Positions 31,947 through 34,056 of a DNA stretch of 64,000 nt are shown one piece after another. How positions within the stretch are numbered: the first letter of the stretch is position 1; each line of letters opens with the position of its first letter. A model generated the notes under the pieces. It searched no databases. It saw only the letters and a program-made list of their open reading frames with translations, and was not told the origin of the DNA. The stretch comes from Escherichia phage phiEc_1, in the sequence record LC768462.1. One strand, written 5' to 3'. The translations under genes and the position numbers were made by a program.

Positions 31947-32025
31947 TCAATGGGTGCCTCTGATAAAGGGGCACAATTTAAAGGTTAATTAGATGAAAGG
32001 GTTTACCCTTCAGGTGGATTAGAAA

Positions 32026-34056
32026 ATTTGTGGCATCGTATTAGCTGGCGGTAATCTGTCAAGCACTGATTTAGACGTATTTAACCAACTCTTTTATGCT
32101 GGAGTATTCCGAGGACAACATTCCTCCGGTATCTTTGGTCAGCGTAAAAGTACTAAGGAAGTCTTCACTTATAAAGAAGCTCTTCCTTCTTTCGCATTCA
32201 TCCTACAAGATGAGTACAAGAAGCACACCACTGGTGAAACAGCTTACACTGTAGCACCTTCATGGATTGTTGGTCACAGCCGTCATGCAACGAAAGGTGC
32301 AGTTAACGCCAAGAACGCCCATCCTTTCCAACATGGTAACATCACTCTGGTTCATAATGGAACCTTGATGGACCAAGACCTGTTACCTGACAGTAAAAAC
32401 TTCGAGGTAGATAGTGAGAACATCTGCCACTCTATTAACACTATTGGTGCAGCAGAGACTATTCAAAAGCTGGATGGTGCTTTCACCTTAATCTGGCATG
32501 ATGCTTCTGATAACCGCCTTCATATCATTCGTAACGAAGAGCGTCCTTTCCATCTCGCACGTTGTAACAGAGATTGGTTTGGCGCTTCTGAAGAAGATAT
32601 GCTGATGTGGATTCTGAAGCGTTCGAAGTCTCACAAGAACCGTATTGATGAGCATTTTGAGTGTAAAGTTGGTACAGAGTATATCTTTGACATGTCTAAT
32701 AACAGCATGACACTGGTTGAAGAGGTCGCCCACGAGCTTCCGGTTTTTACGGTAGTCAATCGTTGGGGCAATTACTACTCGAACAATTACAGCCAAAGCA
32801 ACTATCAAAGTTCCTCAAAAAGCAGTACAAGCAATCCTTACGACACGAAGCCGGGTGTGACAGCGGCAGACGTTCGTCGAAGAAACGCAGTGGTAAGTCA
32901 AAACAAAATCGCAAGCGATCGAAACATTGATATTCGCCGCGATATGACTGTGGAAATCACTCCGCATGAGTTTGTTCCTTATGCAACTGCCGGTGCTGTT
33001 CCTTCTCGTGGTAAGATGATTGGTTATATCTACGATGAGAAATCTCAAGAGTATATCGAAGGTGATGTTCATAACGTAGACATTAAGGCTTATCAGGATG
33101 CCCTGAAAGACCCTAAAATTGTTTACCGTGGGACAGTATCCTGCATCTCCGAAGTCAATGCTATGGTCCGTTTAGTGATCACAGCAGGTCGTTTTGTTGA
33201 CCCATCTCTGGAGAAAAAGGAGCCTGAGTCAACTACTGCTGACTTCGATGATGATATCCCTTTTGATATGAATGATAGTTTCGTCAACAAGAATGGTGTT
33301 ACTATCACTCGTAAATTCTGGGAAGCGCACTCTCATGGTGATTGTGGTGGTTGTGATAAGCACATTGATTGGAAGGATGCACCTAAAGCAGTCTTCGCAT
33401 ATCAGTGCTATTGGCATCCTGAATGTCTGGAAGGTTTGACTAAACCTAAAGAGGAAGAAGAGGAGGAAACTCCTATTGGTGTTTGTGAAATCTGCGGTGA
33501 AGTTAAAACAGAGAATGAGTTCGATGATGAACTTAGTCGTCTTCGTGGTGAAGATATCTGTAAAGTCTGCGCTGTAGAAGTAAAGAAGAAAGTGTCTAAT
33601 GCTACGATCAAAGATGGTTATGTCTGGATTAAAGCAACAGATACAACAAACGCCCGTCGTCCTGAATTCGCTTTACGTGTAACTGAAGATATGATCGGTC
33701 GTATGACTGTATTACCTTCCTCAGCGAAACAGACAGGCATCACTCTGGAGGATGTTGTTGATGCTTATGTTGAGAAACGTAGCAACAGTATTTTTGCAAT
33801 CTCAACTAAGCCAAAAAAGGAGGAACCTGCTGAGAAAGCAGGTGTGTTTCCTGAATCACGAACAGCTCTCCGCAAAACTGTCGTCAGCTTCGACGGAAAC
33901 CGAAGCACTGACTTCACCAAAGCAATGTGGTCAACCCTCGGCTACTGCTCAGAGTGTTTTAAGCAGATTCCGTGGCGCGATGCTGAAAGTTGTACGCTTG
34001 GTTCTATGAATCAAGTTTATTGTAATTCTCCTAAATGTTCATTGAATAGAGGTTAA
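32026..34056 (+). CDS. class-II (Ntn) glutamine amidotransferase domain with ~450-aa Cys-rich C-terminal extension
   Basis: CGIVLAGG...FRGQHSSGIF...HNGTL begins right after an in-frame TAG; only in-frame start is ATT 32026 with AGGTGG SD 8 nt upstream. Confidence 0.65.
   Translation: MCGIVLAGGNLSSTDLDVFNQLFYAGVFRGQHSSGIFGQRKSTKEVFTYKEALPSFAFILQDEYKKHTTGETAYTVAPSWIVGHSRHATKGAVNAKNAHPFQHGNITLVHNGTLMDQDLLPDSKNFEVDSENICHSINTIGAAETIQKLDGAFTLIWHDASDNRLHIIRNEERPFHLARCNRDWFGASEEDMLMWILKRSKSHKNRIDEHFECKVGTEYIFDMSNNSMTLVEEVAHELPVFTVVNRWGNYYSNNYSQSNYQSSSKSSTSNPYDTKPGVTAADVRRRNAVVSQNKIASDRNIDIRRDMTVEITPHEFVPYATAGAVPSRGKMIGYIYDEKSQEYIEGDVHNVDIKAYQDALKDPKIVYRGTVSCISEVNAMVRLVITAGRFVDPSLEKKEPESTTADFDDDIPFDMNDSFVNKNGVTITRKFWEAHSHGDCGGCDKHIDWKDAPKAVFAYQCYWHPECLEGLTKPKEEEEEETPIGVCEICGEVKTENEFDDELSRLRGEDICKVCAVEVKKKVSNATIKDGYVWIKATDTTNARRPEFALRVTEDMIGRMTVLPSSAKQTGITLEDVVDAYVEKRSNSIFAISTKPKKEEPAEKAGVFPESRTALRKTVVSFDGNRSTDFTKAMWSTLGYCSECFKQIPWRDAESCTLGSMNQVYCNSPKCSLNRG

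Follow-up and report, generated by a model that had tools for sequence, protein, structure and literature searches.

The genome of Escherichia phage phiEc_1 (LC768462.1), analysed here as a single stretch of 64,000 nucleotides (the window), raises the question of where translation begins in a gene for a class-II (N-terminal nucleophile, Ntn) glutamine amidotransferase (GATase), the catalytic Cys codon of which is directly preceded in frame by ATT. An earlier note, made from the sequence alone, had proposed that this gene can initiate only at that ATT, and this proposal is supported by the ATG found at the homologous position in outgroup phages, by the ratio of non-synonymous to synonymous substitution rates (dN/dS), by the lack of a canonical start and by existing GenBank annotations. 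We consider it likely that the gene product, an orthologue of that of phiEco32 gene 83 (phi32_83) comprising a class-II GATase domain and a C-terminal region, is translated from the AUU at position 32026, and that this weak codon in combination with a strong Shine-Dalgarno (SD) sequence (and an adjacent hairpin) would constitute a selected device that sets the level of expression.

Start codon and N-terminus of the amidotransferase gene

The frame at the start site (+ strand, as for the leader and gene features described below between 31954 and 34056) reads GAT TAG (32020-32022) AAA ATT (32026-32028) TGT (32029-32031) GGC ATC GTA TTA GCT GGC GGT, i.e. stop-K-I-C-G-I-V-L-A-G-G after the GAT, and the codons preceding the TAG are CAG GTG GAT. 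The positions of the TGT, ATT and TAG given in the earlier note were confirmed in the sequence, as was its placement of an SD sequence, AGGTGG (32012-32017), 8 nt upstream of the ATT. The AGGUG of this element pairs with the CACCU of the 16S rRNA 3' end (duplex energy -7.0 kcal/mol), while the spacer (32018-32025) has the sequence ATTAGAAA and matches in length that of ATT lineages carrying an AGGAGG-type SD. No ATG, GTG or TTG is present in frame between the TAG and the Cys codon, and since the TAG lies in frame two codons 5' of the ATT, an N-terminal extension is excluded. The first canonical in-frame starts are a TTG and an ATG in tandem (32365-32370), 112 codons past the Cys; the claim that no such codon occurs before 32365 was thus borne out, while the Met that the note had placed at that position is encoded three nucleotides further on, 32365 being a TTG and the first ATG being at 32368. 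From the ATT, the open reading frame (ORF) continues without interruption to the stop codon at 34054-34056, giving a complete coding sequence (CDS) of 676 codons (32026-34056; 76.1 kDa). A protein initiated at 32368 would lack the catalytic Cys along with roughly half of its glutaminase domain, and initiation at 32365 would split this domain in the middle of its conserved VHNGTL motif.

The GATase domain itself covers approximately 230 amino acids (32029-32718) and is recognised by Pfam GATase_6 (55 bits, cutoff 27) and GATase_7 (27.4 bits, cutoff 25), while a domain profile search of the PDB matched structures of GlmS/GFAT, PurF and AsnB. In these alignments the residue encoded by TGT 32029-32031, at profile position 1, is aligned to Cys1 of E. 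coli PurF (1ecb) and Cys2 of human GFAT1 (6r4h), and in the PHROG 4736 and GlmS models it falls on profile position 2, right after Met, all of which identifies it as the putative N-terminal nucleophile (Cys1 of the mature enzyme). In an alignment of 11 homologues (A1), C1, R28, R85, N110-G111 and D128 are invariant; the latter four are presumably the glutamine-binding and oxyanion residues, i.e. the catalytic residues of PurF and GlmS. Judged by its sequence, the gene product has the hallmarks of a class-II GATase domain, and glutaminase activity is predicted.

At the position homologous to ATT-TGT, an ATG-TGT (M-C-G-I-V) is found in Cronobacter phage GAP52, Salmonella phage 7-11, Aeromonas phage 4_4572, Proteus phage Privateer and numerous uncultured or metagenomic phages, and ATG is used without exception by the cultured homologues from Vibrio, Salmonella and E. 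coli PJNS034. Additionally, the 112 codons from 32029 to 32364, which include the invariant Cys1, Arg28, Arg85 and Asn110-Gly111, display a dN/dS of 0.07-0.08 (dS approximately 1.8-2.3) in comparison with phages SU7 and KBNP1711. The codon layout, the homology to ATG and this purifying selection on the N-terminal region together support the ATT at 32026 as the true start codon.

This start is already recorded in the type genome, albeit inconsistently across databases, and it is a known kind of start site. Both the phiEco32 GenBank record (EU330206, 2008) and its RefSeq copy NC_010324 begin the CDS at the ATT (locus position 4227, equal to window 32026; protein records ABY52884.1 and YP_001671828.1), as do the GenBank records of SU10 and Bas91, and it is the sole start other than ATG, GTG or TTG among the 128 annotated phiEco32 CDSs. 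Conversely, of seven related records examined for their start, four are annotated with a truncated CDS that loses the Cys: the RefSeq record of ES17 (L303) and phage Paul (L305) use the ATG equivalent to window 32368, SU7 (L004) an ATG nine codons past the Cys, and KBNP1711 (L003) a GTG farther downstream. Gene callers report only the downstream start for the window gene, and the majority of 60 sampled records carry no annotated feature across the leader and first codons. In the Aeromonas phage BUCT695 (L019), the CDS is annotated from position 2584, a downstream start that deletes the catalytic Cys; Proteus phage Privateer (L005, position 2177) presents the opposite case, its CDS being annotated from a TTG 13 codons 5' of ATG-Cys, which would bury the Cys. 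In the literature searched, which did not extend to the original reports on phiEco32 (Savalia 2008, Pavlova 2012), no paper discussing the ATT start in phiEco32 or in amidotransferases was found. Nor was a description found of two results presented below, namely that the leader is invariant and that the combination of ATT/ATC, strong SD and hairpin recurs across the family.

The leader and its recurrence among phage amidotransferases

The start site is embedded in an invariant leader and translation-initiation region (31979-32033) which is identical across Kuravirus, Suseptimavirus and Nieuwekanaalvirus. All 55 nt of this segment are identical in 96 Escherichia/Shigella phage records representing at least three genera, and a 59-nt query (31976-32034) was at least 99% identical in 96 of the 98 matching phage records, whereas the 30-nt windows flanking the leader have identities of 0.43-0.83 and synonymous sites in the adjoining coding sequence are saturated (dS approximately 2). 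By this comparison the leader is a constrained element, in which a hairpin (AAGGG-UUUA-CCCUU, 31997-32010), the SD, the spacer and the ATT follow one another in 5' to 3' order. The same cassette is present at 91.5% identity in BUCT695, a member of the Grimontviridae (GATGAAAGGGTTAACCCTTCAGGCGGATTAGAAAATTTGTGG), the protein of which groups with ATG-type GAP52 in a (poorly resolved) neighbour-joining tree despite its ATT cassette.

To place this arrangement in the phage GATase subfamily, 146 loci encoding it were collected from IMG/VR, metagenomes and GenBank and clustered by their first 150 residues with an identity threshold of 70%, and the codon before the Cys was read in the resulting 82 clusters. 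This codon is ATG in 67 clusters, ATT or ATC in 11 (13%), TTG in two and GTG in two. While a single ATT triplet would by itself carry no weight, the invariance of 31979-32033, the absence of any second ATT start among the 128 phiEco32 CDSs and this recurrence of ATT/ATC at the same position in 13% of lineages indicate that the ATT of the window is no chance occurrence. Two further ATT loci were present among seven hits in bacterial genome assemblies; as bacterial assemblies yielded these seven hits only, the subfamily is essentially phage-specific. Ten of the 11 ATT/ATC clusters have an ATG cluster as their single nearest neighbour in sequence, and the remaining one (L252) has a GTG cluster. 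Among 12 ATT/ATC loci examined, 11 have an in-frame stop 2-7 codons 5' and no canonical start before the Cys, the exception being L174 with an in-frame ATG eight codons upstream. One lineage (L164/L284) is polymorphic for ATC and ATT and, with a dN/dS of 0.09, is under purifying selection.

The initiation regions of the ATT/ATC loci follow a common plan, (U)AGGAGGAU + N6 + AUU UGU GG, in which the spacing is 8 nt, as it is in the window. In L258, a distant homologue (approximately 40% protein identity), the corresponding sequence, AGGAGGATTAGAAAATTTGTGGCAT, equals that of phiEco32 at 24 of 25 positions. The predicted duplex between SD and anti-SD is stronger in ATT/ATC clusters (median -9.9 kcal/mol) than in ATG clusters (-6.3 kcal/mol; Mann-Whitney p=0.003). 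An exact 14-mer scan of IMG/VR (TAGAAAATTTGTGG) returned approximately 120 hits, which were chance matches except for known phages.

The hairpin directly 5' of the window SD, which can extend to 31994-32012, retains its stem in BUCT695, where the change is confined to the loop, and gains one additional A-U pair relative to phiEco32 in L311, the closest variant of the cassette. A stem of 5-6 bp with a loop of 3-5 nt, located at approximately -29 to -15 from the start and abutting the SD, was found in nine of the 11 ATT/ATC clusters as against six of the 67 ATG clusters (Fisher p=1.3e-6), and the minimum free energy of the region from -42 to -11 likewise differs between the two groups (p=2e-6). 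The 3' end of such hairpins lies at -14 to -16 from the start codon, and their register moves by 1-4 nt between lineages. Their stem sequences are unrelated, namely AAGGG/CCCUU (phiEco32 type), CCUGA/UCAGG (L258), AAGCC/GGCUU (L288), CCGGC/GCCGG (L204), AAUGC/GCAUU (L163), GAACC/GGUUC (L161), GACUC/GAGUC (L174) and UAGCC/GGCUA (L164); in L284, of the L164 lineage, a substitution at the stem base turns an A-U pair into a G-U wobble. ViennaRNA folds the hairpin in ten of 12 sequences, each of them weak when taken alone (z 0 to -3). Folding of the leader as a single sequence gave no significant z-scores, except in a 116-nt stretch dominated by an intercistronic stem-loop further upstream; as the leader fold of the window is not significant, the claim for the hairpin stands on its recurrence across lineages and not on the window sequence.

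Alternative explanations and proposed mechanism

A mini-ORF on which the earlier note was silent runs from an ATG at 31993 to the same TAG at 32020-32022 (31993-32022; nine codons, MKGFTLQVD), in frame with the enzyme and preceded at 8 nt by a weak SD (AAGG, 31981-31984). Ribosomes might therefore translate this mini-ORF, stop at its TAG and restart 3 nt further on at the AUU, in which case expression would depend on coupling and not on de novo binding of the 30S subunit. The position of its end, 3 nt before the ATT, would suit such reinitiation, the mini-ORF is preserved in BUCT695, and both L311 and L163 have a long upstream ORF whose stop lies 0-5 nt from the ATT. However, the two amino-acid changes that the mini-ORF has undergone in BUCT695 are both non-synonymous, its ATG is replaced by CTG in L311, it is missing from the other ATT lineages, and the 'GATGAAAGG' that corresponds to it in GAP52 does not lie in frame. 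Furthermore, an upstream ORF ends within 15 nt of the start at four of 13 ATT/ATC loci in comparison to 38 of 67 ATG clusters, i.e. adjacency is depleted; as it is rarer at ATT/ATC loci, translational coupling is not the mechanism they share. Reinitiation is accordingly judged unlikely, and the mini-ORF is probably incidental. The in-frame position of the mini-ORF would also permit readthrough of the TAG from the ATG at 31993, yielding a 12-residue propeptide (MKGFTLQVD-X-KI) that is removed autocatalytically in the manner of B. subtilis PurF, a class-II GATase that does carry a propeptide (PMC3261824). We regard this as very improbable, given that TAG is an ordinary stop codon in 14 of the 128 phiEco32 genes, that the window holds no suppressor tRNA (its tRNA-Arg(TCT) being the only tRNA), that L311 has no mini-ORF ATG and a tandem TAG TAA directly 5' of its ATT, that in other ATT lineages an in-frame stop is present but an upstream start is not, and that outgroups begin with ATG right at the Cys. 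Recoding of the TAG by a suppressor tRNA was rejected on the tRNA content of the window and the ordinary use of TAG in phiEco32.

An alternative that the earlier note had contemplated is that the N-terminal glutaminase half is a remnant which is not translated. The protein would then start at TTG 32365 or ATG 32368, which agrees with the downstream starts annotated in ES17, Paul, SU7 and KBNP1711, with the output of gene callers and with SU10 peptides having matched a 63.8-kDa model. The N-terminal half is nevertheless not a remnant, because strong purifying selection, at saturated synonymous sites, acts across exactly those codons that a downstream start drops; all catalytic residues are moreover invariant, the frame is undisrupted in 96 genomes, and a start at 32365 would cut into the VHNGTL motif. 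These data contradict the alternative, to which we attach very little probability. A sequencing or assembly error, or a strain-specific mutation of ATG to ATT, is suggested by nothing other than the rarity of ATT starts, and it can for practical purposes be dismissed: the ATT is not an error because it is present in all 96 related and independently sequenced phage records, and BUCT695 carries it too, as do contigs from IMG/VR and metagenomes. The comparative data thus refute this explanation.

Initiation at the AUU as part of a selected start arrangement, which we favour, has to be weighed against several observations. The case for AUU initiation is drawn from sequence comparison, and SU10 proteomics is uninformative on the N-terminus because the peptides were searched against the truncated 63.8-kDa model. 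The initiation regions of the ATT/ATC loci share AGGAGGAT-N6-ATT, and these clusters may be non-independent, representing one cassette that was spread by recombination; with such a single origin, the association statistics would overstate independence. The neighbour-joining tree of the family is poorly resolved, the window hairpin is weak (-6.1 kcal/mol, z approximately 0 versus shuffles), and the ATT/ATC lineages L290 and L252, as well as L312, lack a hairpin. Lastly, the regulatory rationale (initiation factor 3 (IF3), guanosine tetraphosphate (ppGpp), a low set-point) is one that we infer.

Under the favoured AUU start, the SD AGGUGG would position the 30S subunit 8 nt from the codon, with the small hairpin abutting the 5' side of the SD, and the initiator formylmethionyl (fMet)-tRNA would read the AUU. 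The fMet would then be taken off by peptide deformylase and methionine aminopeptidase, as for E. coli PurF and GlmS, and the in-frame TAG two codons upstream would prevent the synthesis of an inactive form with an N-terminal extension. In E. coli PurF, removal of the Met makes the Cys N-terminal (PMC3261824). The free alpha-amine and thiol of the exposed Cys1 would perform glutamine hydrolysis, and the resulting ammonia might be handed to an acceptor function residing either in the C-terminal region or in the amidoligases encoded next to it.

With regard to regulation, AUU and AUC are non-canonical codons for IF3, infC (the gene for IF3) is autoregulated via its AUU, and both ppGpp and nutrient limitation act preferentially against mRNAs with non-AUG starts; for one phage gene, expression in E. 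coli from AUU reached approximately 5% of the AUG level (PMC5499595). Most probably, the start arrangement would keep the initiation rate of this glutamine-consuming enzyme low or make it sensitive to IF3/ppGpp. The remark in the earlier note that ATT starts are rare and usually regulatory is plausible, and the invariant leader together with the recurrence of ATT/ATC, strong SD and hairpin lends it support. A broader proposal, which we advance tentatively and hold to be somewhat doubtful, is that phage class-II amidotransferases possess a recurrent initiation module (a 5-6 bp hairpin, a near-perfect SD, an 8-nt A/U-rich spacer and AUU/AUC before the Cys1 codon), repeatedly selected or spread as a cassette among ATG relatives, which might couple synthesis to the initiation state of the host (IF3, ppGpp/nutrients) in infection.

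Genomic context and comparison with known systems

The window is a Kuravirus genome (phiEco32-like, Gordonclarkvirinae) by sequence comparison, the segment 31800-32600 sharing 100% identity with Escherichia phages ES17 and EK5, and approximately 98% with phiEco32 and SU10. Its sole tRNA gene is a tRNA-Arg(TCT) at 23023-23098, which matches the single tRNA-Arg annotated in phiEco32. The GATase gene belongs to an early amidoligase/ATP-grasp cluster, with a COOH-NH2 ligase gene (29413-30219) and an Amidoligase_2 gene (30843-31946) on its 5' side, and two small ORFs followed by an ATP-grasp gene (34500-35696) on its 3' side. In the 'Herbiconiux daphne' assembly, L311 (NZ_JANLCJ010000514.1) and L308-L310 are sub-kilobase scaffolds with GATase fragments of the enterobacterial phage type, 48-60% identical to A1, and look like phage contamination of an actinobacterial assembly.

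Downstream of the GATase domain, the protein continues with a low-complexity linker rich in S, N, Y and Q (approximately 32800-32930; NRWGNYYSNNYSQSNYQSSSKSSTSNPYD), and its C-terminal ~250 residues (33300-34053) contain three Cys-rich motifs of the C-x2-C … C-x2-C or C-x3-C type, which are possibly zinc ribbons; the C-terminal region has no Pfam match, and PHROG 4736 spans residues 1-516 only. The name 'L-glutamine-D-fructose-6-phosphate aminotransferase', given to the protein in RefSeq/GenBank records (NC_010324, NC_027395, NC_023593 and others), is on sequence grounds an over-annotation. Identity as GlmS was rejected, with scores of 42 bits for PRK00331 (cutoff 381) and 36 for TIGR01135 (cutoff 418) and a match over residues 1-196 alone. 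Pfam detects no SIS domain in the gene 83 orthologue, and neither a phosphoribosyltransferase, a SIS nor a synthetase domain was found, the glutaminase domain being the sole part common to PurF, GlmS and AsnB.

A scan of the leader for sigma-70 promoters gave none on the + strand, no match to the phiEco32 phage-sigma consensus TAATGTATA was present in the leader at up to one mismatch (the published consensus being tAATGTAtA; PMC4331800), and the authors of the SU10 study list no promoter or terminator near the gene. As no promoter is predicted in the leader or listed nearby, the gene appears to be an internal cistron of an early transcript. An Rfam 15 scan of 31800-32300 likewise gave no hit close to threshold, the best scores being 13-17 bits against gathering thresholds of 44-70 (E-values of at least 0.55). 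On the - strand, a sigma-70-like match (32062 to 32035, TTGACA-16-TACGAT) is directed antisense towards the start region; such a match is expected by chance (one found, 0.9 expected), its -35 element is by eye not conserved in SU7, and it is probably meaningless. In outgroups and BUCT695 (L014, L015, L016, L006 and L019), TTTAAATGTAA(A/T) occurs just 5' of the SD, approximately 20-30 nt before the GATase start, and resembles the phage-sigma consensus; Kuravirus has TTTAAAGGTTAA (window 31976-31990) in its place, without a consensus match at up to one mismatch, and a middle promoter before the GATase gene may have been gained or lost.

Just past the amidoligase stop, and outside the start site proper, a stable 8-bp intercistronic stem-loop is predicted, GUGCCUCU-GAUAA-AGGGGCAC (31954-31974). 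The position of this stem is kept in relatives with other sequence (GCGCUCU/AGGGCGC in L011), outgroups have GC-rich hairpins there, and no U-run follows it; it may be an mRNA-stability or processing element. BUCT695 (L019, 2340-2500) and L311, not Kuravirus, have a short helix-turn-helix-like ORF (…VGCSQ(T/M)H(V/I)SKLE(L/R)GKY…) between the amidoligase-type and GATase genes, which in L311 crosses the hairpin and SD and ends at the TAG TAA adjoining the ATT.

The correct start is needed for expression and biochemistry of the uncharacterised phiEco32 amidoligase/GATase cluster. Beyond this, the enzyme family uses ATT/ATC in approximately 13% of its lineages, where SD strength co-varies with the codon and a hairpin adjoins. 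This amounts to a natural, multiply replicated data set on why selection would pair a weak start codon with a strong SD, and the question is approachable in E. coli with culturable phages (phiEco32, SU10, ES17 and Bas86-94 of the BASEL collection).

Conserved AUU starts are very rare in bacteria, infC being the textbook case and pcnB another gene with such a start, while purF, glmS and asnB of E. coli start with ATG, and the class-II GATases GlmS and AsnB of this host mature by removal of the initiator Met, which exposes Cys1. The phage gene resembles E. coli infC in having a non-canonical AUU/AUC start that is phylogenetically conserved at one gene, in infC discriminated by IF3, and the interchange of ATT and ATC in the L164/L284 lineage mirrors the AUU/AUC usage reported for infC (PMC5499595). 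As in that system, AUU/AUC is conserved where relatives carry AUG and no alternative canonical start is available; the phage gene differs in encoding an amidotransferase instead of an initiation factor, and in its start being set in a module with a strong SD and a hairpin. A conserved non-canonical GTC start repressed by IF3 is reported for Streptomyces sigR (PMC5472188), providing a precedent for translational control via IF3, albeit with another codon, organism and class of gene. B. subtilis PurF exemplifies the other route to Cys1, via a propeptide (PMC3261824), which the phage mini-ORF superficially resembles; however, the TAG parts the mini-ORF from the Cys, so that this route would need readthrough, L311 carries tandem stops, and no open in-frame extension with a canonical start is found 5' of the Cys. 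With E. coli PurF, GlmS and AsnB, the phage protein shares a start codon followed by Cys-Gly-Ile-Val and, we infer, maturation by Met removal (PMC3261824), while it differs from them in that their genes start with ATG and in that only the glutaminase domain is common to them and the phage protein. Judged from these sequence comparisons, the gene would work as an AUU start of the infC/pcnB type on a Met-Cys N-terminus of the PurF/GlmS type.

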